The translations under genes and the position numbers were made by a program. DNA of 64,000 nucleotides from an uncultured Candidatus Saccharibacteria bacterium. GTDB taxonomy: Bacteria; Patescibacteriota; Minisyncoccia; Minisyncoccales; Staskawiczbacteraceae. Positions 8,556 to 55,901 of this stretch are shown here, one piece after another. Position 1 is the first letter of the stretch. Every line of letters starts with the position of its first letter. The stretch lies in assembly GCA_964479955.1 (NCBI GenBank), contig CAYZNK010000001.1, forward strand, positions 144,091-208,090. The letters run 5' to 3'. The notes below the pieces were generated by a model. That model saw nothing but the letters and a program-made list of their open reading frames with translations, searched no databases and had not been told where the DNA came from.

Positions 8556-8572
8556 GCTATTTTAAAATAAAT

Positions 8573-9496: not shown

Positions 9497-9498
9497 TT

Positions 9499-24219: not shown

Positions 24220-24813
24220 ATGAAAGAGGATTTTTTAAAATTAACCAGTTCTGCCTACAGATTGTCAGAGTATTTTCCAGAGTCAGACCCTTTGAAGGCA
24301 AAAGCAAAAGAAAGAATTTTATCTGTAATGGAAACGCTTGTTGCAATTGGGTGCGAGGCAAATTGGGCTGTTTTAGGAGTTTCAAGCCAACAGCGAATAA
24401 TAGGGGATATTGACGCTCTTTTGGGATATTTTGAAATTGCCAAAAATCAGGAATGGGTAAGCTCAATAAACTATCTGATAATTTCAGGAGAATATAAAAA
24501 GATAAGAGATGAAGTTTTGCAGGTTAAGGTTGTTAAAGAAACAATAGCAGATAATAGTGATAAAGAAACGGTTATCAGGCAGAATATAATAGTTGGTGAT
24601 TTAAAAGAGCAAAAATCGCAAAAGTTTTCTGAAAGACAGAAAAAAATAGTTGACTTTTTAAAAGAAAACAAAAAAGCCCAAGTTATGGATTTGCAGGCAG
24701 TATTGCCAAACATAACAAAAAGGACAATAAGAAGGGATTTGGACCAATTATTGGCAACAGGGGAGGTTATCAGAATGGGGGAATTTAATCAGGTATTTTA
24801 TAAAATAAGTTGA
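24220..24813 (+). CDS. Putative transcriptional regulator with C-terminal winged-helix (DeoR-like) HTH
   Basis: C-terminal RQKKIVDFLKENKKAQVMDLQAVLPNITKRTIRRDLDQLLATGEVIR is a DeoR-type HTH signature. N-terminal helical domain of unknown function. Confidence 0.55.
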   Translation: MKEDFLKLTSSAYRLSEYFPESDPLKAKAKERILSVMETLVAIGCEANWAVLGVSSQQRIIGDIDALLGYFEIAKNQEWVSSINYLIISGEYKKIRDEVLQVKVVKETIADNSDKETVIRQNIIVGDLKEQKSQKFSERQKKIVDFLKENKKAQVMDLQAVLPNITKRTIRRDLDQLLATGEVIRMGEFNQVFYKIS

Positions 24814-25007: not shown

Positions 25008-25505
25008 ATGGACGAGATTAGAGAACAATTTAGCCGGATTTATGACCAATATATAGGCAAAATATACAGGTTTGTTTATTTGAAGGTTAGCTCAGAAGAA
25101 GTTGCGCAGGATATTACTTCCAAGGTGTTCACAAAAGGCTGGGAAGCCTATCAAAAAGGGGTTAAAAACCCAGGGGCTTTTCTTTATCAGATAGCCAGAA
25201 ATTCTGTTATTGATTATTATAGAGAAAAAGGTAGGACAAACACAGTATCTTCGGATTCAATTCCTGAATTGCAAGATAATAGCAAAAGCATAGAAGAAAA
25301 CGCTATTTTGGCTGCTGATGTAAAAATGGTAAAAACAGCCCTATTAAGGATAAAAAAAGACTATCAGGATGTCCTTATTTGGCATTATTTGGATGATATG
25401 CCGATAAGCCAGATTGCCGAAAATCTTAATAAAAAAGAAGGGGCGGTCAGGGTAATGATACACAGGGGCCTAAAAGACCTAAAAGATATTATTCAATCCT
25501 CCTAA
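25008..25505 (+). CDS. RNA polymerase sigma-70 factor, ECF subfamily
   Basis: Sigma-2 region (YRFVYLKVSSEEVAQDITSKVF) and sigma-4 HTH (DDMPISQIAENLNKKEGAVRVMIHRGLKDL). Confidence 0.85.
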   Translation: MDEIREQFSRIYDQYIGKIYRFVYLKVSSEEVAQDITSKVFTKGWEAYQKGVKNPGAFLYQIARNSVIDYYREKGRTNTVSSDSIPELQDNSKSIEENAILAADVKMVKTALLRIKKDYQDVLIWHYLDDMPISQIAENLNKKEGAVRVMIHRGLKDLKDIIQSS

Positions 25506-25584
25506 ATATTGGGAGGTCGGACCTCCCAATGACTAAAATGTAACAAAAGTGGGATTTTTTCGTCATACTTATAAAGGACATAAA

Positions 25585-26340
25585 ATGGCAAAAATAACCG
25601 AAACACAACTTATTGACACATTGAAAGGACTTAAAGATATCAAACCCAATAAACAATGGGCTGTTTTGCTTAAAAGCCAGATATTAGATTGTGGGGCAGA
25701 AAAGCAGGTTGAATTTAACGCCGCAGATTTTCGGACAAACAAAGCAGGAATTGGAGAGATTGTTTTAAGAATGTTTTCTCAAAAGAAACTTGCTTATGCT
25801 TCAGCAACTTTTGCGTTCCTGGTTATTGGAATTTTTGGATTTGCAAGATATACAATGCCGGGCGACATATTTTATCCTGTTAAGAGAATAGCAGAACAGA
25901 CACAGCAAACTCCGCTTCAGATTGCATATAACAGGTCAGAAGATTTGATTAAAGTTGTAAAAGAAAATAAGACTCAGAATTTGGCTCCGGCAATAACAGA
26001 ATATAAAGCCAGCATATCGGATGCAGTTAAAAATTTATCAGACAGTTTGGTTGTTGCCAAGGGAGGGGATAAAAATGCTGTTGAAGAGATTATAAACGAA
26101 GTCAAAAAAATACAGGAAAACCAAAAGCAATTGGAAACTTTAGGAGTAAATATTGAAGATTCAGAACAGATTTCCGAGCTTGATGCTGCATTGTCTTTTA
26201 TAGTTGAAAATCAGATAGCTGATTTGGAGGATTCAACCCTTACAGATAAACAGCAGGAAACTTTGGAGAAGGTAAAAGAGTTGTTTATGCAGGGAGAATA
26301 TTCCCAGGCACTGGAAGAAATTTTACAGATGTCAGAATAA
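25585..26340 (+). CDS. Putative anti-sigma factor (single-pass membrane protein downstream of ECF sigma)
   Basis: One TM helix (LAYASATFAFLVIGIFGFA) and a coiled-coil-rich periplasmic domain. Synteny with the ECF sigma gene. Confidence 0.45.
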   Translation: MAKITETQLIDTLKGLKDIKPNKQWAVLLKSQILDCGAEKQVEFNAADFRTNKAGIGEIVLRMFSQKKLAYASATFAFLVIGIFGFARYTMPGDIFYPVKRIAEQTQQTPLQIAYNRSEDLIKVVKENKTQNLAPAITEYKASISDAVKNLSDSLVVAKGGDKNAVEEIINEVKKIQENQKQLETLGVNIEDSEQISELDAALSFIVENQIADLEDSTLTDKQQETLEKVKELFMQGEYSQALEEILQMSE

Positions 26341-26375
26341 AATTTAAAAACATTGTTCCGGGGTGTTTGCGTATA

Positions 26376-26421
26376 CCCCGTTAGAAATTTACGATTTTAA
26401 AATGGCAAATTTCTAACGGGG
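26376..26421 (+). promoter_or_regulatory. Stable stem-loop (15-bp perfect stem ccccgttagaaattt/aaatttctaacgggg, 16-nt loop) in the long leader upstream of the surface-protein gene
   Basis: Exact reverse-complement arms. No U-tract follows. It sits roughly 130 nt upstream of the ATG at 26555. Confidence 0.45.
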
Positions 26422-26554
26422 TAAATCCCGGGCAAATTATAAACAATGGACAAGTCGCAGATTCGTTGTTAGTACGTAAAGCAATGAGTCAATATGGTCG
26501 ACCGGCGAGAAATAAAATTATTATAAATTTAACTAAAGAAATACACACACAACA

Positions 26555-29500
26555 ATGAGTATAAAAAGAACAATTATTTCGACTATAGTCGCTTTGGCTA
26601 TGGTTGCGACAGTTGCTCCTTCAGTTGCTCAGGGTGTAACAATTGAAGAATTGTTAGCCCAGATTGCTGCTTTGCAAGCTCAATTATTGGCTTTGCAAGG
26701 AGGCACAACAACAACCGGAACATCAACTTATACAGCTTGCGCTGGAGTTACCTTCACAAGAGCTTTAACAGTTGGTTCAACCGGATCTGATGTAAAGTGC
26801 TTACAGCAAATCTTAAATGGAACCGGTTATACGGTTGCAACAACAGGAGCAGGCTCACCAGGCTCAGAAACAACCTACTTTGGAAATTTAACCTTAGCGG
26901 CTGTTAAGAACTGGCAGGCAGCTCAAGGATGGACACCTGCAAACCAGGTTGGCCCATTATCAAGAGCCAAATTAAATTCAATCCTTGCTGGTTCTTCAAC
27001 TGGCACAGGAGGAACCGGAACAGTTATTCCAACAGGCGCAGGATTATCAGTTGCATTAGCGTCTAATAATCCAGCATCAGGAACAGTTGTTGCCGGACAA
27101 GCTCAAGCTCCCTTGGCAAGACTGGTCTTTACAAACGGCGATAATGCCGAGGTAAAGGTTACAACATTGAGATTGATGAGAGGAGGCGTTTCATCTGATT
27201 CGGCTTTATCAAATGTTTATTTGTTTGATGGAGCAGTCAGGTTGACAGATGCAGCTTCAGTTTCGGCTGGAGTCATTGGTTTTAATGATTCAATGGGACT
27301 TTTCACAATTCCTGCATACAGCTCAAAAACAATTACAGTTGCAGCTGATATCTTGAGCACATTAACTGGCGGAACAGTATCTGTAAGCTTAAATTCATCT
27401 TCAGATATCACAGCAAATTCAAGTTCCATAAAAGGAATGTATCCTTTGTACGGGAATACAATGTCAATCGTTGCTAACAACAACAATTTGGCAACAGCTT
27501 ATTTCTCGGTTAACAATGGAACAAGCGGTTTGGATGGTTCATATAACCCAGACGTAACACCAGCAGGAACATCTTCAACAAGCGGAATTGACCCGCAGAA
27601 TGATTATCCTGTTTGGTACACAAACCTTAATGTAAACATTAGCAATGGAACAGTAAGAATGAGCAGGTTTGCATTAAGAGAAGTCGGCTCAATCAACTAT
27701 TCTGATCTTCAAAACTTCAGGTTATATGTTGATGGAATACAGGTAGGTTCAGCAGTACAAAGCCTGGACGCAAACGGATATGTAACATTTGATTTGTCAT
27801 CAAGCCCGGTTTCAATGCAATCCGGAGCAAGACAAATAAAAATGTTAGCAGACATAACTGGAGGATCAAGCAGGTACTTCAGCTTCCAGTTAAAAACATC
27901 AGCCGATATCACATTAACCGATGGACAATACAATGTTAACATTGCTCCAACTTATAACAATGGTTCAGCCACTACAACAACATTTACAGCATTGAGAAGC
28001 TGCTGGTATAATACCGGTTCAGCGTATCAGTGTTATATCAATTCAGGTGCCACCACAACAACAAAGACATCTGATTCTCCATCAGGAGATGTTGTTAATT
28101 CAGCAAGCGGACAATTGTTAGGAAAATGGACATTGAAATCCAACGGTGAAAGAATTAAAGTTGATACTTTAAAGGCATACGTATTGTTTGGAAACACCGT
28201 AGCTACGGGAGATGATACAGAGTCTGCAACTTCTACAACATTGAGAAATGCAGCTTTGTATGCCAATGGAGTGCAGATTGGAAACACGGCCAACTTAGCA
28301 ACAGTAACATCAACCTATGTTGGTTCAGTTACTCCAACTACATTCAATTTGGGATCGTCTTTAATAGTTGATCCGTCAACTCCAGTAACATTGGAGTTGA
28401 AGGCAGATATCTACGATAACGCAGGTAGCAACAACGACATTGACGCAACCGACACATTGCAAGCAAAATTGTATGTCGGTTCAGGAAACGGTCAGGGAAT
28501 GGTATCTTCAACAACAAGCAATGTCCCAACAGCAACAACTGCAGCTAACCAATTGACAGTTGCGGCCGGAGGATTAACGTTGTCTCAGTATACAGCTTAT
28601 ACAGCTCAGACAATCGTTGCTCCTCAGACAAACTTTAAATTAGCTCACTTCACATTATCAGCCAGCACAACAGACACTGTTAATGTTTCAACAATTGAAG
28701 CTGATTTAGACTATGTCTCAGCCTTTGTAACCAATCTTTATGTAAAAATTGGTGATTACATGACAACGACAAAGGCCACAGTATCAGCTGCAAACACATG
28801 GTCCGTTAATTATGCTTTGCCAGCAGGCAACATAGTTGATGTAACGGTATACGGAGATTTGTCATCTTCAGCAGTTTGTCCATCAGGAAATCCATGCAAT
28901 GCCAGCGTATTGGTATCTGGAACAACAGCCAATTCGGCAACATCTGTAACAGGTCCTTCCAATGGAAGTGCCGCTACGGGTCAATCCATTGTGGTTGGAA
29001 CAGCTTCCTTCACAGGAACAGTTGACGGCTCAACTCCGTTAGCCGGAGCAGTTGCCGGAAACCAGTTGGTCGCAGGAGCCAAGTTTAAACTTACGGCTCT
29101 CTATGATAGCTACACGGTTACAGAAGCTAAAGTGCAGGCAAAAGACGACAATAACAGCAACAATGGAGCCGTTATTAAATCAGCCACTTTAACTGATGGA
29201 ATAAACAGCTACACAGTTCCATTTGACTCAGCGAATAACTACTTCTACTTTACCGGAATGAGCATTCCTGTTACCGCCAATTCAAACAAGGTATTAACAG
29301 TTAACCTTGATTTGTCTAATCCTGTAGCAGACACGTCAACAACCGGACAAAACGTAAAGCTTACTTTGTACGGATTAAAGGCTCTTAACAGCCAGGGAGA
29401 AGTGAAAGCCGATGGAACAGGTATTACGGGATCTGGCATCACTCTAAGTAATGCTGCCGGAAACCATATGTATGTTTACAGGTCAGTTCCAACCTTCACT

Positions 29501-30184
29501 AAACTTGCTGTAACAGGACAGGGAACAAATTTGAAGGCAGGCAGTGAAATCGTTTTGTACAGATTTACTGCAGGGGCTGATGCAAAAGGACCAGTTGCCT
29601 TGAAACAAATCAAGTTTACGGTAACAGTAGCTGATGATCCTGCTGCAGATACTTCACCTGTATTGGGAACCTTCAAGTTCTTTAGAACTGCATCAGGAAG
29701 CGAGACAGATATTTCTGATTATGTCCATATAACTGGAAATGGCTCAACTGATTTGGAGGCATCTGACACAATCGTAGAAGGAGGCAGCACTTATGCATAC
29801 GTAATCTTTGATACAGAGGAAACAATTCCAGCTGGTCAGACATATACATATGAATTAAGAGCAACTCCATCAGGATTTGCCGGATCAACTACAGATGCTG
29901 ACTCAGTCGCAACAAGCGTTGCAGTTGATTCAGCTCCAGCTGATACAACAGCGGGATACGATGTGACAGAGCCATACTTGTCAGCAGCTAGTGCATACAA
30001 CATCTATACATTGCACTCAGCTCAAAACGGTGGTGGGTCAGATACAGCTGAAAATGTCATCTGGTCTGATAACTCAGCTCTTAGCCACGACTGGACATAC
30101 TCAGCTTCTTCAGCTGACTGGTTCGGAGGCTACTTGATTAAGAGTTTGCCACTTTCAGCCACAGGTATTAACTACAACAACTAG
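26555..30184 (+). CDS. Large secreted cell-surface (S-layer-like) protein with N-terminal peptidoglycan-binding domain and long Thr/Ser/Gly/Ala-rich beta-rich region
   Basis: Signal peptide (MSIKRTIISTIVALAMVATVAPSVAQG). PG_binding_1-like segment (LTVGSTGSDVKCLQQILNGTGY...YFGNLTLAAVKNWQAAQGW). 1209 aa with strongly biased T/S/A/G/N/V composition. Confidence 0.75.
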   Translation: MSIKRTIISTIVALAMVATVAPSVAQGVTIEELLAQIAALQAQLLALQGGTTTTGTSTYTACAGVTFTRALTVGSTGSDVKCLQQILNGTGYTVATTGAGSPGSETTYFGNLTLAAVKNWQAAQGWTPANQVGPLSRAKLNSILAGSSTGTGGTGTVIPTGAGLSVALASNNPASGTVVAGQAQAPLARLVFTNGDNAEVKVTTLRLMRGGVSSDSALSNVYLFDGAVRLTDAASVSAGVIGFNDSMGLFTIPAYSSKTITVAADILSTLTGGTVSVSLNSSSDITANSSSIKGMYPLYGNTMSIVANNNNLATAYFSVNNGTSGLDGSYNPDVTPAGTSSTSGIDPQNDYPVWYTNLNVNISNGTVRMSRFALREVGSINYSDLQNFRLYVDGIQVGSAVQSLDANGYVTFDLSSSPVSMQSGARQIKMLADITGGSSRYFSFQLKTSADITLTDGQYNVNIAPTYNNGSATTTTFTALRSCWYNTGSAYQCYINSGATTTTKTSDSPSGDVVNSASGQLLGKWTLKSNGERIKVDTLKAYVLFGNTVATGDDTESATSTTLRNAALYANGVQIGNTANLATVTSTYVGSVTPTTFNLGSSLIVDPSTPVTLELKADIYDNAGSNNDIDATDTLQAKLYVGSGNGQGMVSSTTSNVPTATTAANQLTVAAGGLTLSQYTAYTAQTIVAPQTNFKLAHFTLSASTTDTVNVSTIEADLDYVSAFVTNLYVKIGDYMTTTKATVSAANTWSVNYALPAGNIVDVTVYGDLSSSAVCPSGNPCNASVLVSGTTANSATSVTGPSNGSAATGQSIVVGTASFTGTVDGSTPLAGAVAGNQLVAGAKFKLTALYDSYTVTEAKVQAKDDNNSNNGAVIKSATLTDGINSYTVPFDSANNYFYFTGMSIPVTANSNKVLTVNLDLSNPVADTSTTGQNVKLTLYGLKALNSQGEVKADGTGITGSGITLSNAAGNHMYVYRSVPTFTKLAVTGQGTNLKAGSEIVLYRFTAGADAKGPVALKQIKFTVTVADDPAADTSPVLGTFKFFRTASGSETDISDYVHITGNGSTDLEASDTIVEGGSTYAYVIFDTEETIPAGQTYTYELRATPSGFAGSTTDADSVATSVAVDSAPADTTAGYDVTEPYLSAASAYNIYTLHSAQNGGGSDTAENVIWSDNSALSHDWTYSASSADWFGGYLIKSLPLSATGINYNN

Positions 30185-30230
30185 TACTTGCCTCTCACCT
30201 TGCTTGTGACAAGGTTGCGAGAGAAAAACA

Positions 30231-30260
30231 AAAACTCCCCTTAAGGGGAGTTTTTGTTTC
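30231..30260. terminator. Bidirectional intrinsic terminator between the convergent surface-protein gene and the Wzy_C gene
   Basis: Perfect stem aaaactcccc/ggggagtttt with loop ttaa, then tttttgtttct. An additional upstream hairpin lies at 30192-30226. Confidence 0.75.
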
Positions 30261-30274
30261 TGGGTTGTTGAGAA

Positions 30275-32533
30275 TTAGTGGGGAAGAGTTTGAAGAAACA
30301 TATCTACCTCTTCTTTTGCATCAGGCATAAGCTGTAAAAATATCATTGCTTGTTCCCTTGCTTTTTTATATTCTTTTAATTGGACATAAACAAAAGCCAA
30401 AGAGGCATAATTTTGTGCAACATCGGGTTTTCTTTTTATAATTTCTTGGTAAACAATTACAAGGCTTGAATAATCATTTATCTCAGTAAAAGCATTTGCC
30501 AGTTGATATAAATAAGTTATGCTGATGTTTCCATATTTTTCAATAAATGTCTGAAAATTTTCATTTGCTTGTTCTATTTTTTTTAAATATATTTCCGACA
30601 TAATTTTTATCCAATAGCATTCTGCTAAATCTGGCTCCAATTCAATACACTTTAGTGCCATTTTTTCCATTTCTCCATAATTTCCTGCTACCATATTAAG
30701 CTTTGCTTGTTCTATTACTACTTCTGGATGAAGGGGGGCCAGTTGCTCTGCTTTTTTAAGATAAGAGTCAGATTTTTGTAATAATAAATCTTTTTGACTT
30801 AAGTCTTTTTCTGAAGCTGCTTTTATATTTGTAAATCCTCCCAAAAAAAGCCAAAAACGAGAATATGTTGGTCTAATTTCTATTGCTTTTTCTAAAATTT
30901 TGCTTCCCATCTCTGCATATTCTAAATTTTTATCAGGATTTATTGATGCGCATAATTTTATATTTTCAACATAATGAATTATAATGTGCGCATCTAAAAA
31001 ACTGTGTTTTTTAAGAAGATTCTCAGATATTGAAAAAGATTTTTCGCACTTTTCGTTTTCCGCAAGGTCATCTGCATCGTTAACTTGTTTGTTAATTTGC
31101 AGAGGCAAAAAATTGTATTGCCATAAAAAAATCAATAAAAAAACAGATAAAACAGTTACAATAAATCTTTTCCCTTTTATTTTTTTATAATTTTTTTGAT
31201 TGTTTGCATCTTCATTTTTATGAGGATATATTAAAAACATTGAATATCCTACTATTAAATAAAATAAAAGGTATGAAGAAAATCCGTCAAAACTAAAAAA
31301 GTTTGCAGCAGAATATGCAATTATCGTAGCTTGAATTCCATGGCAAATTTTGTTATCGCTGACCTTCTTATTTTTTTGTAGGAGTAAAAAAATTGCCATA
31401 AAGAGAACAATATATACTATAGTAGCCGGAATTCCGCTAGTTACCGCAACATCCAAAAATGCATTGTGAGACCTGTCCCACCATCCTCCCCATGTTTTTG
31501 ATATATAAGGAAGGGAAGGGTCATAATGTTTATCAAATCCAATAGCAAGATTTTCTGGACCCCATCCTAAAATAGGTTTTTCTATTATTGCTTTTATAAC
31601 TACTTTCCATGCAGAAAATCTTGGGTCTGCTAAGGCTGAATCTATGGAAAGTCTGTTTTTAACTGAGTTAAAAATTCTATTGTCTTCCAAGAACTCCGGA
31701 AATATTTTTTGAGAGTTAATATAATAAACGGTAAAAAATCCAAGAACAATTAATGCCCCAAAAATAATTTTTAAAATAATAATTTTTTTAAAAACGGGTT
31801 TGTTTTTGGGTGTATTTTTAATCGGATAAAACAATAAAAAATATGTTGCTCCGGCCAGTAATCCAATATATGAGGCCCTAGACCCCGTTATTAGAATTGT
31901 AAATAAAAATAATAGAACAGCTGAAAAATAAAAGATTTTACGCCAGCGGATTTTTTCTTTTATGGCAAAGACAAATGTTATAAAAAATAGCAAAAGAATA
32001 TAAATACCCAACATTATTGGGTTTCCCATTGTTGACGGAGGCCTGTCTCCTGAGGAAATAAATATATTGCTGAATAGTCCATAGTACTGGATAAAGGCTA
32101 TTAAAGATGCCAAAACCCCTACAAGTATAGAGAAATCAAGAAGTTTTTTCCAGTCTTCTGCTTTTATACTTAAAAAAGTAAAAACAGCAAAGATTATATA
32201 AAATAAAAAATTTATCGCACCTTGTGCTCTGTAGGGAGAGCCCCATAAACTAAAATTTATGTCTTGAGAAAATATTGTTGATAATATTATTAACAGAAAA
32301 TATATCCCAAAAATCCAAAAAACTTTGTTGTTTTTGAAGCTTGGCAGGTGTAACTCGTTTCTTTTATAAAGGAATTGCCACATAAAAAGAAATAATAGAA
32401 TTGACATGACAATTCTAAAAATGATTCCTTTACCCCAATCAACAGGATGGAGATAGTTAGGACCTGCTAAAATTGGCAAAAATAAAATTATTAAAATTCC
32501 TATAAGATAAACCTTGTATAATGAATTTTGCAT
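30275..32533 (-). CDS. O-antigen ligase / Wzy_C-family polytopic membrane protein with C-terminal TPR repeats; candidate O-oligosaccharyltransferase or polymerase
   Basis: More than 10 TM helices. The Wzy_C hallmark ILITGSRASYIGLLAGA. The C-terminal roughly 250 aa form TPR-like repeats. Confidence 0.8.
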   Translation of the reverse strand: MQNSLYKVYLIGILIILFLPILAGPNYLHPVDWGKGIIFRIVMSILLFLFMWQFLYKRNELHLPSFKNNKVFWIFGIYFLLIILSTIFSQDINFSLWGSPYRAQGAINFLFYIIFAVFTFLSIKAEDWKKLLDFSILVGVLASLIAFIQYYGLFSNIFISSGDRPPSTMGNPIMLGIYILLLFFITFVFAIKEKIRWRKIFYFSAVLLFLFTILITGSRASYIGLLAGATYFLLFYPIKNTPKNKPVFKKIIILKIIFGALIVLGFFTVYYINSQKIFPEFLEDNRIFNSVKNRLSIDSALADPRFSAWKVVIKAIIEKPILGWGPENLAIGFDKHYDPSLPYISKTWGGWWDRSHNAFLDVAVTSGIPATIVYIVLFMAIFLLLQKNKKVSDNKICHGIQATIIAYSAANFFSFDGFSSYLLFYLIVGYSMFLIYPHKNEDANNQKNYKKIKGKRFIVTVLSVFLLIFLWQYNFLPLQINKQVNDADDLAENEKCEKSFSISENLLKKHSFLDAHIIIHYVENIKLCASINPDKNLEYAEMGSKILEKAIEIRPTYSRFWLFLGGFTNIKAASEKDLSQKDLLLQKSDSYLKKAEQLAPLHPEVVIEQAKLNMVAGNYGEMEKMALKCIELEPDLAECYWIKIMSEIYLKKIEQANENFQTFIEKYGNISITYLYQLANAFTEINDYSSLVIVYQEIIKRKPDVAQNYASLAFVYVQLKEYKKAREQAMIFLQLMPDAKEEVDMFLQTLPH

Positions 32534-32718: not shown

Positions 32719-33135
32719 TCAAAATTGTTTTTTATATTCTTCTTTTTTTATATCAGCAGTTTTTACAACTGTCCAATAACTTTTGGATTTTTTATCTATT
32801 TTTATATTCAGGAGGTCTTTGCCTGATAATTTTAAAAATAAAGAAATGGGAGTTAATATTATAAAAAATAATATAATCAAAATCATGGATGATATTATTA
32901 TCCCAATAATGATTCCTATCGTCATCCATGTTTTTTGCAGGGGCTTTAACACAGATGGCAGAAACAAGGATAATAGTAAAACAGCAATAGATGCTAAAAA
33001 AAGCAACAGAGAATAATTATATTTTTTAAGAAAAATAAAATATACAGCAAAAATAACCATTAAGGATACTAAAACAAGAGAAAATTTTGATATCTCCTTT
33101 TTATCGCTTTTTATATTTTTTATACTATCTAACAT
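32719..33135 (-). CDS. SxtJ-family small membrane protein
   Basis: Two TM hairpins with the conserved LKPLQKTWM...LTPISLFLKLSGKDLLNIKIDKKSKSYW. Syntenic with the carbamoyltransferase. Confidence 0.7.
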   Translation of the reverse strand: MLDSIKNIKSDKKEISKFSLVLVSLMVIFAVYFIFLKKYNYSLLLFLASIAVLLLSLFLPSVLKPLQKTWMTIGIIIGIIISSMILIILFFIILTPISLFLKLSGKDLLNIKIDKKSKSYWTVVKTADIKKEEYKKQF

Positions 33136-33148
33136 TATTTTAATTTTT

Positions 33149-34960
33149 TTAATCTATCTCAAAAGTTTTTTTCCAGTCTGTATCATTTTTAATTGGTTTT
33201 TGCTCTTTTTTATCCAAAAGAAAATCTCCAAGCAAAAGATAATCCATGTTTGTTCTTAAAAAACATAAATACGCGTCTTTTGGTGAACAAACAATTGGCT
33301 CTCCTCTTACATTAAATGAAGTGTTTACAATTACAGGACAGCCGTATTTTTTAAAAAATGCGGCAATAATACTGTAGTAAAATGGGTTTGATTCTTTTGC
33401 AACAGTTTGTAATCTGGCAGAAAAATCAACATGGGTTACAGCAGGTATTTTAGAGCGGATTACATCAAGTTTCATTTCTTTTTCCGATTTATTTTCGCTT
33501 ACCTCAAGGCGTAAATTTTTATTTACAGGAGCCGTTAAAAGCATGTAAGGAGACTCTGTATCTAAATCAAAAAACTTTTTTGATTCTTCAGTTAAAACAG
33601 AAGGAGCAAATGGCCTGAAACTCTCCCTGAATTTTATTTTTAGATTCATTATTTTTTGCATTTCAGGGCTTCTTGGGTCTCCGATAATAGACCGATTTCC
33701 AAGCGCCCTTGGCCCAAACTCCATTCTGCCATGAAATATACCTATAACTTTTTGGCTATTTATAAGGTCTGCAATTTTATCCGGAATTTCTTCTGGAGTT
33801 AGCTTCAAAGAGGGGATATTATCAGATTCTAAAAAATTTTGTATTTCTTGATTGCTAAATTCTGGACCAAGAAGAGATGAGTTTTGAAAGTCATGGATTT
33901 CATCTGCTATTCTTTGATTTTGCAGATATTGGTAAAAAACGGACAATGCGGCCCCTAAGGCCCCTCCGGCATCTCCGGAAGCTGGCTGTATCCAAATATT
34001 TTTAAAAGGTCCCTCTTTTAAAATTTTTGAATTAGCCACACAGTTTAAGGCTACTCCTCCTGCCATGCATAAATTTTTTTGCCTAGTAATTTTAAAAAGA
34101 TAATTTGCAGTTCTAAGAACTATTTCTTCTGTAACATCTTGTATTGACCTGGCAATGTCTGCCTCTCTTTGGCTAATTGGGGTTTCTGGTTTTCTTGCAG
34201 GTCCCTTAAAAAGTTTTTCAAATTTTTTGTTTGTCATTTTTAATCCTGTGCAGTAATCAAAGTAATCCATATTCATTCTGAATGAGCCGTCTTCTTTAAG
34301 GTCAATTAATTCAGAAAGTATTATTTCTTTATATTTAGGTTTTCCGTAGGGAGCTAATCCCATTAGTTTATATTCTCCGGAGTTAACTTTAAATCCGCAA
34401 AAATAAGTGAAAGCAGAATAAAACATTCCCAAAGAATGGGGAAAATTGATTTCAGAAATCATTCTTAACTCATTTCCTTTTCCTATCCAACAACTTGTGG
34501 TGGATTTTTCTCCAACAGCGTCCATTATTAAAATTGCTGATTCTTGAAATGGTGAGGCAAAAAAAGCCGATGCGGCGTGAGACTGATGATGGCTTATAAA
34601 TAAAATATTTTTAGCAGGATTTAGTTTTTTTTCTATGATATCTTTTATCCAGATTTTTTCTTTTATCCATAAGGGCATTGATTTTAGAAAAGACTTTATG
34701 CCAAAAGGCGCAAAAGAAAGATAAGTTTCCAGTAGTCGCTCAAATTTTAAAAACGGCTTTTCGTAAAAAGCTATATAATCAATATCTTTTTCTGATAACC
34801 CCTGAGATTTTAAGCAGTAGTTAATTGCGTTTTGTGGAAAAGAAGCATCATGTTTTTTTCTGGTGAATCTTTCTTCTTGGGCTGCGGCTACTATTTTGCC
34901 GTCTTTTACAAGACAGGCCGCACTATCATGATAAAAAGCTGAAATTCCTAAAACATTCAT
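33149..34960 (-). CDS. Carbamoyltransferase (NodU/CmcH/SxtI family)
   Basis: N-terminal VLGISAFYHDSAACLVKDGKIVAAAQEERFTRKKHD (the Kae1/YgjD-like domain of NodU-type carbamoyltransferases) plus a C-terminal YrdC-like domain. 603 aa. Confidence 0.9.
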   Translation of the reverse strand: MNVLGISAFYHDSAACLVKDGKIVAAAQEERFTRKKHDASFPQNAINYCLKSQGLSEKDIDYIAFYEKPFLKFERLLETYLSFAPFGIKSFLKSMPLWIKEKIWIKDIIEKKLNPAKNILFISHHQSHAASAFFASPFQESAILIMDAVGEKSTTSCWIGKGNELRMISEINFPHSLGMFYSAFTYFCGFKVNSGEYKLMGLAPYGKPKYKEIILSELIDLKEDGSFRMNMDYFDYCTGLKMTNKKFEKLFKGPARKPETPISQREADIARSIQDVTEEIVLRTANYLFKITRQKNLCMAGGVALNCVANSKILKEGPFKNIWIQPASGDAGGALGAALSVFYQYLQNQRIADEIHDFQNSSLLGPEFSNQEIQNFLESDNIPSLKLTPEEIPDKIADLINSQKVIGIFHGRMEFGPRALGNRSIIGDPRSPEMQKIMNLKIKFRESFRPFAPSVLTEESKKFFDLDTESPYMLLTAPVNKNLRLEVSENKSEKEMKLDVIRSKIPAVTHVDFSARLQTVAKESNPFYYSIIAAFFKKYGCPVIVNTSFNVRGEPIVCSPKDAYLCFLRTNMDYLLLGDFLLDKKEQKPIKNDTDWKKTFEID

Positions 34961-36369
34961 TTTATGTTTTGATTTAAAAAATCAGTAATAATATTCCCCG
35001 AGAGAAAATGCCCCAAATCGTTCAAATGTTCGTTATCTTTTGAGTATATATTTTTGTAATTATTATTTTTTACATAATCCCTGAAATATGGTAAAAGGTC
35101 AAGGTAGGGAATTTGATTTTCTATTGAATAATTTTCTATATATTTTTGCGGAAAATTAATGTCATAATCTTGGCCGGATTCTGCAGTAGCATAAACTTGG
35201 TTTTTAAAAGGCAGAGTCACAATCATAAGTTTTATATTATTCTCTTGGCACAAATTTTTGATGGCTTCCAATTCCAAAGTAACTTTTGAAACAGTTTCTT
35301 TTCCAATCTCCGGATATTCTTTTTGGCACCAAAAATTAGAAGAAGCAAAAGATTTATTATCCGTAAAATCAACGGGGCCATAACTGTTGTCTGATTTTTG
35401 AGCTACATTTTCTAAAAAGCTGTTTAATAGAGTATAAAAGTAAGTGTTCCTTATTGCAATAGTGGTATTTTTTATAAAATAGAGAATAGGATTTTTAGGA
35501 TTTGTTTGGGGAGTTATAAAATCTTTTGAAATTTCCTGAGGCATATCTTTTAGCAAATTTTCATTAAATACCAATATCCCTCCTTCTTCGTTAAATAATT
35601 TTTCACCAAAATAAGTGTCTCTAAAATCATTTCCGTTATAGGAAACTAAAATGAGATATTTGGGCCCAAAATTTATTACGTCGTTTTTTAACTGAATGGC
35701 CTCGTGGGAAAATCCATATCCTGGCATTCCAAAGTTTATTACTTCAAATTGGTTTTGGTTTATCTTGGAGTTAAATACTCCAACAAAAGAATTTTCAACA
35801 GTTGAGGACCATGCGCCAAAAGTTTGAGAGTCCCCCATAAAAGCAATGCGCTCTTTTTCAGAATTATTATTGATGGAAACTTCCTGCCATCTTAATCCCA
35901 TTGAATTTGTTTTTATATTCATTGTTTGGCCTCCTATCGTAATATTTATATCCAAATTTGGTTTTGTTTTATAGGGCAGGTTATCTTCTCCTTTTTCAAA
36001 AATTTGTAAACCGCCACGCTGTTTTAAAATAATTTTTTCAGAGGGAATAATTAAGTGCAAAACCCCTTCTGCTGCAAAAAAACATAAAATTAAGGAGGTT
36101 ATAAAAATAAATATATTAGTTTGTTTGCTTAGATTTTTTCTATATAATAACAAGATAGCCCCAATTGTAATCAAAATAATAGAGCCCGTCCAAAGCATAA
36201 TTTTATGGGAGAGCGGAAATTGACTGCCTTGCCATACAAAAAGTTTTGCTAAAACCCATTGGTTGAATACAATTGGAAGCGCAACAAAACCAAACCCGCA
36301 GGCTGTGTATATACCGGATAATATTCCTTTAAATTTAAGGACATTTTTCTTTTCTAAATGCGGTTCCAT
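34957..36369 (-). CDS. Membrane-anchored SGNH/GDSL-family hydrolase or acyltransferase
   Basis: N-terminal TM helices. GDSQTFG block I and a C-terminal DLGHF (DxxH) block. Confidence 0.7.
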   Translation of the reverse strand: MEPHLEKKNVLKFKGILSGIYTACGFGFVALPIVFNQWVLAKLFVWQGSQFPLSHKIMLWTGSIILITIGAILLLYRKNLSKQTNIFIFITSLILCFFAAEGVLHLIIPSEKIILKQRGGLQIFEKGEDNLPYKTKPNLDINITIGGQTMNIKTNSMGLRWQEVSINNNSEKERIAFMGDSQTFGAWSSTVENSFVGVFNSKINQNQFEVINFGMPGYGFSHEAIQLKNDVINFGPKYLILVSYNGNDFRDTYFGEKLFNEEGGILVFNENLLKDMPQEISKDFITPQTNPKNPILYFIKNTTIAIRNTYFYTLLNSFLENVAQKSDNSYGPVDFTDNKSFASSNFWCQKEYPEIGKETVSKVTLELEAIKNLCQENNIKLMIVTLPFKNQVYATAESGQDYDINFPQKYIENYSIENQIPYLDLLPYFRDYVKNNNYKNIYSKDNEHLNDLGHFLSGNIITDFLNQNIK

Positions 36370-36460: not shown

Positions 36461-36925
36461 ATGGTCAAATCAATTAAAAAAATAGTGGTCACTTCCGGAT
36501 TTTTTAATCCTATGCATATTGGGCATATTAACTTGTTCAAAGAAGCAAAAAGCCTTGGGGATTTTTTAGTTGTAATAGTAAACAACGATGAGCAAGTAAA
36601 ACTAAAAGGAAGTTTTCCTTTTATGTCAGCCCAAGAGAGGTCAGAGATAATAAAGGCGTTAAAATATGTTGATGAAGTTTTTTTATCGGAAGATTTTTTT
36701 ATTGACGGAAAGGAAGTTCCAATTCCAAAATCTTTGCAGATAATAGCTGAAAGGTACCCCGGAGAGTTAATTTTTGCAAAAGGCGGGGACAGGGATATAA
36801 ATCATATTCCTTGGCAAGAAAAAGAAGTTTGCGATAAATTTAAAATAAAAGTAGTTACGAATGTTGGGGGAGATAAAATCCAAAGTTCTTCCTGGCTAAT
36901 ATCTAAGGTTGTCACTAAAAATTGA
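36461..36925 (+). CDS. Cytidylyltransferase-like nucleotidyltransferase (TagD/RfaE-II superfamily, HxGH)
   Basis: VVTSGFFNPMHIGHINLF HxGH motif. 154 aa. Confidence 0.8.
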   Translation: MVKSIKKIVVTSGFFNPMHIGHINLFKEAKSLGDFLVVIVNNDEQVKLKGSFPFMSAQERSEIIKALKYVDEVFLSEDFFIDGKEVPIPKSLQIIAERYPGELIFAKGGDRDINHIPWQEKEVCDKFKIKVVTNVGGDKIQSSSWLISKVVTKN

Positions 36926-38411
36926 AACAATGTTTTTGAAGGTCCAAAAATTTTTGTTTGAGAATATATCACTCAAGCAAACCATTTTTAAAAATACTTT
37001 CTGGCTGGCTTTGGCAGAATTAGTTTCCAGACTGCTTGAAGCGGTTCTTTTTATTTATATAGCAAGAATTTTAGGAGCCGAAGATTTTGGAAAGTTTGCC
37101 TTTGCCTTGGCAACTTCTTCAATATTTATAGCATTCTCAAGTATGGGGTTTTCTGATGTTTTTACCAGGGAGTTTTCTGGCTCAAAGGAAATTAAAAAAG
37201 AATATTCAGCTGTTTTAACCCTAAAGGTTATATTGGGAATTTTAGCTATATTTTTAGCTATAATTGCTTCATTTTTTATAACCACAGACCATACAATTAT
37301 GCTAATGATAGGGGTTTTGGCTGTTTTTTATTTTTTTAATGATTTTTTTCTCTTTATATATTCTTTTTTGAGAGCCTACCAAAAAATGGAATATGAATCG
37401 GCTTTTAAGATATTTAGGTCTTTGGTATTGTCGGCAGTAGTGCTTTTTATAATTTTTGAAAGCCCCTCTTTAAAAAATATCAGCCTTGGATATTTGTCAG
37501 CTAATATTTTTGCTTTAATTTTGGTATTAATCTTTTTCCATTTTAAGATTTACCCCTTAAAGCTGGACTTCAATATAAACGTTTGGAAAAAATTTTTAAA
37601 GCTTTCGTGGCCCGTGGGGCTTGCTGCCATTTTTGGAGCAATTTTTATAAATGCAGATTCTGTAATTTTGGGATATTTTAATCTTATAGTTGAAAACGGA
37701 TGGTATGGAGCCGCCAGAAGAACTGTGGCGATTATAATTATACCGTCATCTTTGGTTTCAATGAGTTTTTATCCTGTGTTAAGCCAGTTGTTTTTGGAGT
37801 CAAAAGCAAAGATGCAAAAGGTTTGGAATTATTATTTGGGCTCAATGATAATTTTTGCTTTGCCCGTTACCTTTGGAGGGGTGGTAGCTGCCTCTAAAAT
37901 TATTAATTTTATTTATGGGCAAAACTTTTCTCCTGCAATTCTTATTTTTCAAATTTTGATATTTATTGCCGGAATAAATTTTGTATACAGCGCTTATTCT
38001 ATAATGTTGATAGTTTCCAGACACCAAGAAAAATATTTGTTTATAAATATGACAGCTGCTTTGATTAATATTGTTTTAAATTTTGTTTTAATATCTCTAT
38101 ATGGTCCGTATGGGGCAGCTGTTGCGGCTGTGATTACTTATATTATCTTGTTTTTTATGGCAGTTTTTCTTCTACATAAATTTTCAATTATGACTACTTT
38201 TAACATATATCTATTCAGGATTCTTATTTTATCTGTTATCGCGACTGCAATAATGCTGATTTTCATAGGTATTCCAATTATTCAAAGCCTTAATGTTATA
38301 TTCTTAGTTTCTTTTGGAATATGTATTTATTTTGTTGTGTTTTCCGGCCTATATAAAACTTTTCAAAAAAAATGGAAATTGCCTCGATTAATATTGTTTA
38401 AGTATGATTAA
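36909..38411 (+). CDS. Polysaccharide flippase (Wzx / MOP superfamily)
   Basis: About 14 TM helices. N-terminal FWLALAELVSRLLEAVLFIYIARILGAEDFG is typical of Wzx/MurJ-type flippases. Confidence 0.8.
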   Translation: MSLKIETMFLKVQKFLFENISLKQTIFKNTFWLALAELVSRLLEAVLFIYIARILGAEDFGKFAFALATSSIFIAFSSMGFSDVFTREFSGSKEIKKEYSAVLTLKVILGILAIFLAIIASFFITTDHTIMLMIGVLAVFYFFNDFFLFIYSFLRAYQKMEYESAFKIFRSLVLSAVVLFIIFESPSLKNISLGYLSANIFALILVLIFFHFKIYPLKLDFNINVWKKFLKLSWPVGLAAIFGAIFINADSVILGYFNLIVENGWYGAARRTVAIIIIPSSLVSMSFYPVLSQLFLESKAKMQKVWNYYLGSMIIFALPVTFGGVVAASKIINFIYGQNFSPAILIFQILIFIAGINFVYSAYSIMLIVSRHQEKYLFINMTAALINIVLNFVLISLYGPYGAAVAAVITYIILFFMAVFLLHKFSIMTTFNIYLFRILILSVIATAIMLIFIGIPIIQSLNVIFLVSFGICIYFVVFSGLYKTFQKKWKLPRLILFKYD

Positions 38412-39258
38412 AAAACAAAATAATAAAATAATAGCTGTTACCGGAGCCGATGGGTTTTTAGGAAAAAAACTTTGTTTAAGGCTTGAAGAGCTTGGTTATG
38501 AAGTTTTAAGGCTTGACCTTGAAAATTTTGATGTAAAAAATAAAATAGAATTACCTCAAAACATAGACGTTATATATCACTTGGCCGCCATCAATAAGCC
38601 TTATTTATCAAAAGAAGCGCCCCTTGAAACCTTCAAAACAAATGTTTTGGGAACATTAAATCTATTGGAGGCTGTAAAAAATTACGGCGTTAAAAAAATA
38701 ATTTTTACTTCATCTGTATTCGTTTATAAGGACCTGCAAAAAACTAAAGAGAGCGATTTGGTAGAATATAACGGCATTTATCCTTATGGATTGGAAAAAT
38801 TGGTTTGTGAAGAATATATAAAGATATATTCTGGCTTGTGCGGATTTGATTATGCAATACTAAGAATTACTGGAGTCTATGGTCCCGGAATGTACAAAAA
38901 TCCTATTTATGACTTCATACAGGGATTTTTGAGGGGAGAGATTAACCTTTATGTAAATAAAAAATCCGTATATAATTTTGTTTATATTGATGACGTTGTT
39001 TCAGGGCTTATAAAAGCATTAAAATGGAAAAATCAAATTCTTAATTTATGTTCTGACAAAAGCGTAAAACTGACAGAAATTTATAATTTATTGTCTAAAA
39101 TGTTAAAAAATAAGTCCGAAGTTAGTGACACAAAAAATATTATTAAAATTAAAGGTAATAACAAAAAAATAAAAAAAATGGGCTGGAATCCAGCTTATTC
39201 TCTTGAAAAAGGATTAATTAAAACTTATAAATTTTTAAAAGATAATGAAAAAAAATAA
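38404..39258 (+). CDS. NAD-dependent epimerase/dehydratase (SDR)
   Basis: AVTGADGFLGKKL Rossmann motif and a YxxxK (YPYGLEKLVCEEY) catalytic motif. Confidence 0.8.
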   Translation: MIKKQNNKIIAVTGADGFLGKKLCLRLEELGYEVLRLDLENFDVKNKIELPQNIDVIYHLAAINKPYLSKEAPLETFKTNVLGTLNLLEAVKNYGVKKIIFTSSVFVYKDLQKTKESDLVEYNGIYPYGLEKLVCEEYIKIYSGLCGFDYAILRITGVYGPGMYKNPIYDFIQGFLRGEINLYVNKKSVYNFVYIDDVVSGLIKALKWKNQILNLCSDKSVKLTEIYNLLSKMLKNKSEVSDTKNIIKIKGNNKKIKKMGWNPAYSLEKGLIKTYKFLKDNEKK

Positions 39259-45762: not shown

Positions 45763-45764
45763 TT

Positions 45765-51129: not shown

Positions 51130-51145
51130 ATAAAAATGCAAAAAA

Positions 51146-53748: not shown

Positions 53749-53762
53749 AAATATATGAATAT

Positions 53763-54482: not shown

Positions 54483-54520
54483 AATTAAAAAATAAATATT
54501 AATTATTATTTTAAAAAATT

Positions 54521-55168: not shown

Positions 55169-55182
55169 CAAACATAACATAA

Positions 55183-55899: not shown

Positions 55900-55901
55900 C
55901 C

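Follow-up and report, generated by a model that had tools for sequence, protein, structure and literature searches.

The present study concerns a pair of convergent genes in a 64-kb stretch of DNA (the window, to which all coordinates refer unless a locus from another genome is named) from a bacterium of the candidate phyla radiation (CPR). One gene encodes a large surface protein, designated BIG (the 1209-aa product of 26555-30184, plus strand), and the other encodes a membrane protein of the O-antigen-ligase family, designated WZYC (the 752-aa product of 30275-32533, minus strand). An earlier note, made from the sequence alone, had described both open reading frames (ORFs) with the same coordinates and lengths as those found herein, and had proposed them as a protein O-glycosylation pair in a "CPR-like" host. 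That host is borne out by the names carried by the homologs, Candidatus Staskawiczbacteria and Parcubacteria, and these names, together with the remaining genes of the window, which include NrdD, ComEC, HtrA and ClpB, led us to assign the organism to Staskawiczbacteria-like Parcubacteria. CPR bacteria (Patescibacteria) account for a large share of bacterial diversity and live attached to other cells, and their surface molecules are almost unknown; the literature yielded nothing relevant on S-layer glycosylation in Patescibacteria, nor on an O-antigen ligase in Parcubacteria. The features of the gene pair are as follows (TM, transmembrane segment).

26555-30184, plus strand: BIG, whole gene, a secreted, peptidoglycan-anchored, beta-sandwich-rich surface protein of 1209 aa
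26555-26632, plus strand: signal peptide of BIG, aa 1-26, with the sole hydrophobic segment at aa 3-30 and a predicted cleavage site
26738-26992, plus strand: PG_binding_1 domain of BIG, aa ~62-146, with an invariant GAGSPGxETTYFG loop and low-confidence Ser/Thr/Gly-rich linkers on either side
27044-30181, plus strand: body of BIG, aa ~164-1209, divergent repeated beta-sandwich modules with an invariant C-terminal W-S-D...H...D-W motif
30226-30259, both strands: bidirectional intrinsic terminator common to BIG and WZYC, with 17-nt arms that are 100% complementary and A-run/T-run flanks
30275-32533, minus strand: WZYC, whole gene, a Wzy_C (O-antigen-ligase family) membrane protein of 752 aa with a C-terminal TPR domain
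31100-32533, minus strand: 13-TM core of WZYC, aa 1-478, with a WaaL-like fold
31463-31711, minus strand: large extracytoplasmic catalytic loop of WZYC, aa 275-357, with invariant R305, E327, N328, W351, D353 and H356
30278-31096, minus strand: extracytoplasmic TPR domain of WZYC, aa ~480-752, with TPR Pfam matches, strong PDB TPR profile matches and helical repeats in the model

BIG and WZYC converge across a 90-bp intergenic gap, and the shared bidirectional terminator of the earlier note was recovered within this gap as a palindrome with the arms AAACAAAAACTCCCCTT/AAGGGGAGTTTTTGTTT, in which a GC core stands between an A-run and a T-run. The folding z-score of the palindrome against shuffled sequence is -4.4 (-4.38). 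Direct repeat finding and folding revealed this terminator; a simple terminator scan did not report 30226-30259.

BIG had been described as a secreted protein that joins an N-terminal peptidoglycan-binding domain to a Thr/Ser-rich beta body, and the results obtained herein are consistent with that description. The signal peptide lies within a conserved N-terminus (M-x-I-K...VAP..A in alignment A1), PG_binding_1 is the only Pfam domain detected (aa 76-127, E 3.8e-7), and the composition comprises T 13.4%, S 11.2%, A 11.5% and G 9.5% (Ser+Thr 24.6%). The AlphaFold2 model (pLDDT 81.2; pTM 0.43, a value that fits a beads-on-a-string protein) contains, in precursor numbering, an N-terminal helix, a low-confidence Ser/Thr/Gly linker, the helical PG_binding_1 domain, a second low-confidence linker and ~1050 residues of beta-sandwich, and the protein is all-beta after aa ~160. 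The beta-sandwich domains are divergent copies of each other (hhalign probability up to 93.6%). BIG homologs are about 1120-1240 aa in length and share many conserved residues from end to end, a pattern that appears unlike that of typical adhesins, which vary in repeat number, and the linkers stay low-complexity even in relatives whose body is replaced.

Several indirect pointers to the expression level of BIG were also observed, including its codon use, the strong terminator and a long structured leader. The share of C-ending codons in two-fold pyrimidine families is 0.436 in BIG, compared with 0.229 ± 0.063, which is the top value among the 51 genes of the window (+3.3 standard deviations). 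Strong C-ending codon bias commonly signals translational selection on genes with high expression, and BIG is probably very abundant. That BIG is a major wall-anchored surface protein is well supported, and it could form an S-layer-like or a fibrillar coat. Two conserved elements of BIG deserve mention in their own right. The GAGSPGxETTYFG loop is an insertion in PG_binding_1 at aa 98-110 (26846-26884), with invariant G98, G100, S101, G103 and E105; its model confidence is low, a similar GxGSxGxETT loop occurs in extra peptidoglycan-binding proteins of other loci, and it could serve in binding or be a site of modification. In the otherwise variable tail, an invariant I-W-S-D-x-S...H...D-W-x-x-G-Y motif spans aa ~1169-1193 (30059-30133).

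WZYC had been predicted to be a polytopic Wzy_C protein with C-terminal TPR repeats, and the profile search and structure prediction that the earlier note had suggested both yielded such a protein. Pfam Wzy_C matches aa 205-375 with 80.4 bits (gathering cutoff 31.7; E 1.6e-22), and weak Pfam TPR matches cover aa ~580-740. The AlphaFold2 model (pLDDT 87.7, pTM 0.83) has 13 TMs followed by a helical repeat domain at aa 480-752. Fold comparison of this model revealed a polytopic WaaL-like fold, also that of PglL, with a large extracytoplasmic loop, and the TPR part resembles TPR superhelices, including that of O-GlcNAc transferase (OGT). Because there are 13 TMs, with the N-terminus in and the K/R-rich loops inside, the catalytic loop and the 270-aa TPR domain both lie outside the cell. 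Identity, fold, topology and catalytic residues were all computed directly. R219, at the TM7/8 boundary, R305 and H356 are invariant in alignments A2 and A5, and align with SRT/PRQ/SHN of PDB entry 9rmk and with TRG/VRL/AHN of WaaL 7tpg. In E. coli WaaL the essential Arg/Arg/His are R215/R288/H338, and these are conserved in PglL as R224/R298/H349 (PMC3643930). With a profile of the TM core that included distant partners of BIG homologs, the best PDB match was 9rmk, "Oligosaccharyltransferase" (E 6e-12, positions 126-375, through a PglL_B-like region), a protein of 610 aa with a PglL-like GQRNNLGHY motif, and the second was WaaL 7tpg (E 1.4e-11, positions 204-385). Profiles were required for these matches, as a single-sequence PDB search with the TM core returned noise only.

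The linkage of the two genes was analysed in 80 loci with 10-kb flanks, collected by a BIG-anchored search with one genome per species, onto which the window proteins and profile hidden Markov models (HMMs) were mapped; these loci are cited below by L-numbers. For both BIG and WZYC, homologs over the full length (40-75% identical) run into the hundreds and occur in Staskawiczbacteria and other Parcubacteria, and the mean pairwise identity of WZYC is 39% (22 loci). ORFs of the Wzy_C family, detected with the TM-core profile, number 39 in 465 kb downstream of BIG, within 6 kb, versus 0 in 595 kb upstream. The check for synteny of homologous pairs, also suggested by the earlier note, gave a clear outcome: among loci with a sigma factor and a DUF5667 gene before BIG and at least 3 kb of downstream sequence, a convergent WZYC was observed in 26 of 30, at a distance of 0.1-5.6 kb, and a Wzy_C gene was present in 12 of the 26 other, more distant BIG loci. 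In the reverse direction, all WZYC homologs picked regardless of BIG (3/3) face a 1037-1148-aa protein accompanied by DUF5667, with the sigma and helix-turn-helix (HTH) genes present too where the locus reaches far enough. The spacer between BIG and WZYC is variable and has received unrelated insertions, namely class-A beta-lactamase-like, IS200-like and phosphoribosyltransferase genes.

The association is not confined to one gene order. BIG and WZYC are convergent in Staskawiczbacteria and co-directional in L030, L039-L050, L061, L063 and L079. In distant lineages, where BIG is ~31-35% identical and the flanks are unrelated, a Wzy_C gene, with or without TPR, lies downstream on the same strand in several layouts; the sigma and DUF5667 genes were not detected in these distant-lineage BIG loci. 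The distant partners also pass the Wzy_C cutoff (L040 74.6, L030 68.9 and L063 78.2 bits). In total, the association is kept in at least 5 arrangements or strand orientations. In L045, of the Paceibacteria type, the order is an HTH-like gene, BIG, a Thr/Ser-rich secreted protein, a 300-aa PG_binding_1 protein with a BIG-like module at its C-terminus, a membrane-anchored TPR protein and Wzy_C-TPR; this run is set between FtsK/RecA/EF-P and ribosomal protein L10/MscS, and no glycan-synthesis gene was found within ~8 kb. A small TPR protein lies between BIG and WZYC in L062 and L064, and a small membrane-anchored TPR protein directly follows BIG in L065, L066, L068 and L073, with no Wzy_C in the sequenced flank. 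Examples of the genes after BIG in other Parcubacteria, including these small TPR proteins, are located as follows.

L040, 13562-18194: genes after BIG
L045, 13381-17907: genes after BIG
L062, 13812-14489: gene after BIG
L066, 13549-14331: gene after BIG

Since TPR proteins follow BIG even without a Wzy_C gene in range, BIG is linked with a TPR module outside the cytoplasm and, by way of this module, with the Wzy_C enzyme. The pairing of BIG and WZYC is conserved, non-random and survives rearrangement, as computed directly from the loci, and the two genes are a genuine conserved functional module. As an observation on the spacer, the class-A beta-lactamase-like/serine-hydrolase gene (PF13354) lies between BIG and WZYC in L002 (13537-14550) and likewise in L003, L004, L006, L007 and L013, and is absent from the window.

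Beyond WZYC lies the glycan pathway with two Wzx flippases that the earlier note had put at "~34 kb", which is roughly right: the locus occupies 32719-63933, at least 31 kb, and continues to the window end. It encodes GT2/GT4 transferases, epimerases/dehydratases, methyltransferases, RmlC/RmlD, a UDP-glucose dehydrogenase, a carbamoyltransferase and an SGNH protein. Its main features are the following.

32719-33135, minus strand: SxtJ-like small membrane protein (Pfam/NCBIfam)
33149-34960, minus strand: NodU/CmcH-type carbamoyltransferase (Pfam/NCBIfam)
34957-36369, minus strand: SGNH/GDSL membrane protein (Pfam/NCBIfam)
36461-36925, plus strand: cytidylyl/adenylyltransferase-like gene (Pfam CTP_transf_like; NCBIfam generic RfaE-II/TagD-like, assignable to neither)
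36909-38411, plus strand: Wzx flippase 1 (Pfam Polysacc_synt)
38404-63933: variable glycan-biosynthesis cluster, including Wzx 2 and ORF495, with content that differs between related genomes
51146-52621: Wzx flippase 2 (Pfam Polysacc_synt)
62446-63933, plus strand: ORF495, a GT39/PMT-like glycosyltransferase of the GT-C type with 11 TMs

The cytidylyltransferase-like gene and Wzx 1 (36461-38411) are conserved divergent neighbours of WZYC, and the sequence beyond them is highly variable, as computed directly. Within 4-7 kb beyond WZYC in 22 loci, 60 gene families were counted, 42 of them singletons, the mean Jaccard index is 0.18, and 52% of locus pairs share nothing past two generic families; the cytidylyl/adenylyltransferase-like gene, retained in 19 of 22 loci, is the sole consistent family. 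For example, a DegT aminotransferase lies beyond WZYC in L081, and two NeuB genes with a CMP-sugar synthetase lie there in L084, in which a nonulosonic acid is therefore indicated. The SGNH/carbamoyltransferase/SxtJ-like trio (32719-36369) is a window-specific insertion, and in relatives WZYC directly faces the cytidylyltransferase. Because the trio is immediately upstream on the same strand, it is probably co-transcribed with WZYC as the last gene, and in L083 two Acyl_transf_3 genes are co-transcribed with WZYC where the window has the trio. Judging by this gene content, the glycan may be O-carbamoylated or O-acetylated in a lineage-specific manner.

WZYC remains conserved as the donor pathway varies, and it stays with BIG away from glycan genes; it therefore behaves as an acceptor-specific, donor-tolerant ligase or oligosaccharyltransferase (OTase), unlike a repeat-unit-specific Wzy polymerase, which would sit inside, and co-vary with, its own repeat-unit cluster, as WZYC does not. 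ORF495 was considered as the Wzy polymerase of the cluster and rejected, as it is unrelated to Wzy_C (hhalign probability 8%) and its relatives are GT39/PMT_2 proteins. ORF495 has no Pfam match of its own and no PDB relative by sequence; since its relatives carry PMT and PMT_2 domains, are named glycosyltransferase family 39 and are in some cases fused to GT4 domains, it is taken as a GT-C enzyme. A 39% identical homolog occurs in L081, within a glycan cluster that otherwise differs, and ORF495 joins WZYC as a candidate for the glycosylation of glycans or proteins outside the cytoplasm.

The analysis also went beyond the earlier note in revealing ORF495 as a GT-C enzyme, the carbamoyltransferase/SGNH operon that WZYC ends, and a regulatory unit upstream of BIG. 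BIG is the final gene of this plus-strand unit (HTH, extracytoplasmic function (ECF) sigma, DUF5667-like, BIG), which is kept upstream of BIG homologs in dozens of genomes.

24220-24813, plus strand: HTH (DeoR-like) protein, first gene of the unit (Pfam HTH_DeoR, aa 139-185, E 3.9e-7)
25008-25505, plus strand: ECF-type sigma-70 factor (Sigma70_r2 and r4_2; TIGR02937 ECF superfamily, 79 bits), conserved upstream of BIG
25549-26340, plus strand: DUF5667-like single-pass membrane protein, a putative anti-sigma factor or sensor (weak DUF5667 match, E 0.0025; one TM, aa 80-99)
26373-26424, plus strand: perfect 15-bp hairpin past the DUF5667 stop codon, without a T-run, CCCCGTTAGAAATTT...AAATTTCTAACGGGG (also caught by spurious miRNA models)
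26435-26520, plus strand: structured RNA leader of BIG, within the 214-bp BIG leader

The HTH gene is syntenic in nearly all Staskawiczbacteria-type loci, and weak homologs precede BIG in Paceibacteria-type loci too; the DUF5667-like gene always lies between sigma and BIG, and its homologs in L083 and L084 carry PF18915. The hairpin at 26373-26424 may be a terminator or attenuator between the sigma operon and BIG. Unrelated but analogous hairpins occur at the equivalent position in L005, L007 and L017.

The RNA leader was analysed in a 21-sequence alignment (A4). It consists of block A (TTGACrAGTCG), a 10-bp hairpin P2 with the nearly invariant 9-nt loop AGUACGUAA, and block C (GGTCGACCGrCGAGAAAUAAA); blocks A and C flank P2, are single-stranded and conserved, and variable hairpins are inserted between the blocks. 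P2 is 97.9-99% paired with 4 compensatory pairs (RNAalifold), the covariation is 0.375 versus 0.253 in shuffles, with 0 of 500 shuffles reaching the observed value, and pairing drops to 25-51% in slid-register controls. A covariance model, R1, searched over 1.46 Mb, recovered ~40 copies; each one lies on the correct strand just upstream of a BIG homolog, and some are in loci left out of model building. Among 4227 Rfam covariance models no family was matched by the leader, and the only hits were sub-threshold chance miRNA matches on the neighbouring hairpin. The element was not found in Paceibacteria-type loci and co-occurs with the sigma/DUF5667 arrangement. Tentatively, blocks A and C may pair as a short outer helix, P1 (GUCG with CGAC, with U-A, U·G and C-G variation); RNAalifold gave as an alternative a local hairpin inside block C (GUC-GACC-GAC), which is indistinguishable from the long-range P1. 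A reading of blocks A and P2 as a -35/-10 promoter pair was rejected because hairpin insertions of 25-38 nt part the blocks in L053, L006 and L041, and because the stem covaries. The BIG leader looks like a new cis-regulatory RNA for a surface-protein gene. Two observations on this leader may be added: two copies stand in tandem in L067 (9761-9928), and GGTCGACC is an 8-nt palindrome as well and could be a DNA operator.

Herein, we propose a mechanism that would join these elements. The strain-variable cluster would build glycans on a polyprenyl-diphosphate (Und-PP) carrier, Wzx would flip the carrier-linked glycans across the membrane, and WZYC would move each glycan en bloc onto hydroxyl residues (Ser/Thr/Tyr) of BIG emerging from the membrane, while the external TPR domain would hold or present the protein substrate. 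WZYC would probably also modify other proteins that carry the N-terminal peptidoglycan-binding module of BIG. The flexible Ser/Thr/Gly linkers around this module would be candidate sites, and the ECF sigma/DUF5667 pair and the structured RNA leader would set the expression of BIG. In favour of the O-glycosylation pair of the earlier note stand the conserved linkage, the WaaL/PglL fold, an architecture like that of WsfB (see below), the conservation of WZYC beside variable clusters and the codon bias of BIG; the motifs of PglL are lacking. From this evidence we infer that the acceptor is a protein and that this protein is BIG, with the TPR domain and the regulators in the roles just described. 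Whether WZYC O-glycosylates BIG, a major envelope protein, with cluster-made glycans is in our judgement very nearly an even question, leaning slightly to the negative; this reading is the best at hand and has a direct precedent, but it rests on genomic inference, and the S-layer label is tentative. The fuller proposal that BIG is the major envelope glycoprotein (of S-layer type) of Parcubacteria, to which a TPR-bearing WaaL-fold O-OTase adds glycans that vary by strain and comprise nonulosonic acids as well as sugars with carbamoyl or acetyl groups, with its synthesis under the control of the RNA leader and an ECF sigma/DUF5667 sensor, is somewhat doubtful.

Several results weigh against O-glycosylation of BIG by WZYC. 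The HMM search suggested by the earlier note matched Wzy_C and TPR, as expected, but PglL_A (PF15864) was unmatched in WZYC and in two distant partners even at E <= 10, as was Wzy_C_2. The TM-core profile is no nearer PglL than WaaL (48.3 bits for 9rmk versus 47.1 bits for 7tpg, with the longer span for 9rmk); neither fold search returned 9rmk, which their libraries may not contain. WZYC is equidistant from PglL and WaaL by sequence and structure, and is a member of the Wzy_C/WaaL-fold family, not of the PglL subfamily; telling O-OTases from ligases is a general problem for the Wzy_C family (Schulz et al., PMC3643930). On the side of the presumed substrate, the description of BIG as typical of S-layer glycoproteins was not supported: no homology to a known S-layer protein or to an S-layer anchoring module (SLH, CWB2) was found, and the fold matches are to peptidoglycan-binding domains and cohesin/Ig-like adhesin domains. 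The cytidylyltransferase faces WZYC and a Wzx1-like gene follows in 7 of 21 related loci (with 4-7 kb sequenced), a neighbourhood that is also expected of a polymerase or a wall-polymer ligase, and the window revealed no further candidate for a Wzy-type polymerase. Finally, 14 of the 26 distant BIG loci are without a Wzy_C gene inside the sequenced flank, and part of the synteny in Staskawiczbacteria may be phylogenetic inertia, because the genes upstream of BIG (up656, up846, HtrA and ClpB) are also colinear among these genomes.

The rival with the most to recommend it, unlikely in our estimate, is that WZYC is a ligase (or polymerase-ligase) whose acceptor is not a protein but, for example, a secondary wall polymer, linked to peptidoglycan or anchored in lipid, that anchors or coats BIG. 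The WaaL-like fold and catalytic residues, the conserved divergent cytidylyltransferase with Wzx often next to it, and the conservation of WZYC beside variable glycans would suit any acceptor-specific ligase, and BIG and the extra Paceibacteria proteins all bear a wall-binding module with an unusual invariant loop. S-layer genes adjoin loci for secondary cell wall polymers (SCWPs) or other anchoring polymers in Bacillus anthracis (csaAB) and Clostridioides difficile, which such an arrangement would resemble. Against this, attachment of wall polymers in monoderm bacteria is normally performed by LCP-family enzymes, not by Wzy_C proteins (LCP genes were sought within the window), the PG_binding_1 anchor of BIG binds peptidoglycan itself and is neither SLH nor CWB2, and the L045 operon comprises only secreted, peptidoglycan-binding and TPR proteins with WZYC, and no glycan genes. 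TPR domains also scaffold polysaccharide export, according to a reference cited in PMC2943079, but the known Gram-positive Wzy_C+TPR enzymes have been assigned to protein O-glycosylation.

It is less probable still that WZYC serves the neighbouring Wzx/Wzy-dependent pathway as its Wzy-type polymerase, with BIG a mere neighbour in an envelope gene region. Pfam Wzy_C spans polymerases and ligases, the NCBIfam model "oligosaccharide repeat unit polymerase" matches WZYC weakly (E 2e-4), ORF495 does not qualify as a Wzy, and WZYC is the sole Wzy_C-family gene in the window and lies beside a Wzx gene, as it does in the 7 related loci noted above. However, Wzy enzymes are repeat-unit specific and normally diverge with their cluster, and WZYC is conserved while the cluster content changes completely; it also stays with BIG, away from glycan genes, in Paceibacteria-type loci, keeps the His aligned with the essential His of WaaL and PglL, and carries a large extracytoplasmic TPR domain, which polymerases are not known to need. 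The absence of any functional link, with adjacency due to inertia and any glycosylation of BIG performed by ORF495-family GT39/PMT-like GT-C enzymes or another enzyme, is very improbable. The colinearity of the far-upstream genes, the variable spacer with its insertions, and the PMT/PMT_2 domains of the ORF495 relatives, which are those of protein O-mannosyltransferases, would fit such a case; the persistence of the association in at least 5 arrangements at ~31-35% identity of BIG with unrelated flanks, the restriction of Wzy_C matches to the downstream side (0 versus 39) and the TPR proteins that follow BIG independently do not.

Among described systems, the S-layer protein O-glycosylation of Paenibacillus alvei and Geobacillus stearothermophilus appears closest to the BIG/WZYC locus. 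WsfB of P. alvei and WsaB of G. stearothermophilus are predicted S-layer protein O-OTases, each with a Wzy_C domain. In WsfB a TPR motif stands at the C-terminus, WsaB comes after a small TPR protein of its own, WsaA, and the P. alvei slg locus includes the cytidylyltransferase tagD (PMC2943079). By the published description, Wzy_C and TPR are therein either fused (WsfB) or split (WsaA/WsaB), and both layouts occur among BIG loci; the systems further share a monoderm envelope, a large wall-anchored surface protein as target (presumed in the case of BIG), and an enzyme gene beside a glycan locus with a small cytidylyltransferase (tagD in P. alvei, CTP_transf_like here). They differ in the Wzm/Wzt ABC transporter used there in place of Wzx flippases, in SLH domains and SCWP anchoring in place of PG_binding_1, and in the CPR host, the ECF sigma/DUF5667 pair and the RNA leader of the present locus. 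PglL/PilO (TfpO) enzymes (PDB 9rmk) also belong to the Wzy_C family, gave the best PDB match of the TM core and align with WZYC at the catalytic R/R/H; the gene for the enzyme adjoins that of its presumed substrate, as do 21 of 31 pglL homologs (PMC3643930), and donor promiscuity, suggested for WZYC by the variable clusters, would be common to both. In contrast to PglL, WZYC is without PglL_A or Wzy_C_2, scores no better against it than against WaaL, has a large, clear TPR domain, and would act on a 1209-aa wall protein instead of a pilin. WaaL of Cupriavidus metallidurans (7tpg/7tpj) has 12 TMs, no TPR and lipid A-core as acceptor, whereas the 13th TM of WZYC carries a 270-aa TPR domain outside the cell.

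Similar use of TPR domains has been described for other glycosyltransferases. The tfpW gene, which encodes the pilin arabinosyl-OTase of Pseudomonas aeruginosa, lies directly downstream of its substrate gene pilA, and the TPR domain is on the substrate side. TfpW, TMTC and OGT resemble WZYC as glycosyltransferases, polytopic or soluble, fused to a substrate-side TPR, and the TPR of WZYC resembles that of OGT; TfpW and TMTC are not Wzy_C proteins but ArnT/PMT-type GT-C enzymes, which have a DDx motif and use polyprenyl-P-monosaccharide donors. In three Paceibacteria, proteins with a signal peptide, a peptidoglycan-binding domain and predicted structures of a similar kind were among the five most expressed secreted proteins, and one peptidoglycan-binding secreted protein, PMX_810_sub_00350, adjoins a DUF5667 gene (Kuroda et al. 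2024, PMC10936435). By description only, these proteins of Ca. Yanofskyibacterium/Minisyncoccaceae resemble BIG in combining a signal peptide, a peptidoglycan-binding domain and a beta-rich body; PMX_810_sub_00350 differs in its length of 693 aa, and the authors read such proteins as host-attachment enzymes (PMC10936435).

For Staskawiczbacteria and related Parcubacteria, the locus supplies a concrete candidate, conserved in many genomes, for the principal surface protein anchored in the wall, with WZYC as the enzyme most likely to couple BIG to hypervariable glycan clusters and with an ECF sigma factor, a DUF5667 protein and a new RNA leader as candidate regulators. If the proposed mechanism is true, BIG, WZYC and the regulators would make up a "surface coat" module, complete in itself, through which episymbiotic CPR bacteria diversify their cell surface, and protein O-glycosylation by Wzy_C+TPR enzymes would extend from Firmicutes to CPR. 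CPR bacteria are regarded as monoderm and without lipopolysaccharide (LPS), and no lpx/kdt genes were found within the 64-kb window; O-glycosylation would, if true, explain the presence of O-antigen-ligase genes in CPR genomes without LPS. The locus would then also provide targets for metaproteomics, for glyco-engineering (with a possibly donor-promiscuous OTase) and for labelling in cryo-electron tomography. If the acceptor is a wall polymer, WZYC would stand for ligation without LCP enzymes, which is unusual for a monoderm bacterium.

Some minor observations concern the sugar genes of the window. The sub-cluster around Wzx 2 (50137-57011) is markedly below the rest of the window in GC content (0.26-0.27), in third-position GC content (GC3, 0.13-0.25) and in the use of C-ending codons, and may be a glycan island that was acquired recently or evolves fast. 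A split transketolase, whose N-terminal and pyrimidine-binding/C-terminal halves are encoded by two genes (44851-46571, minus strand), and a radical-SAM enzyme (39245-40360, plus strand) were also observed within the glycan cluster, which hints at an unusual branched or rearranged sugar. Separate from the main cluster, the plus strand at 7236-10521 encodes a DUF6938 protein (weakly similar to diglucosyl-diacylglycerol synthase), an NAD-epimerase and a GT4 glycosyltransferase, which may serve glycolipid synthesis.

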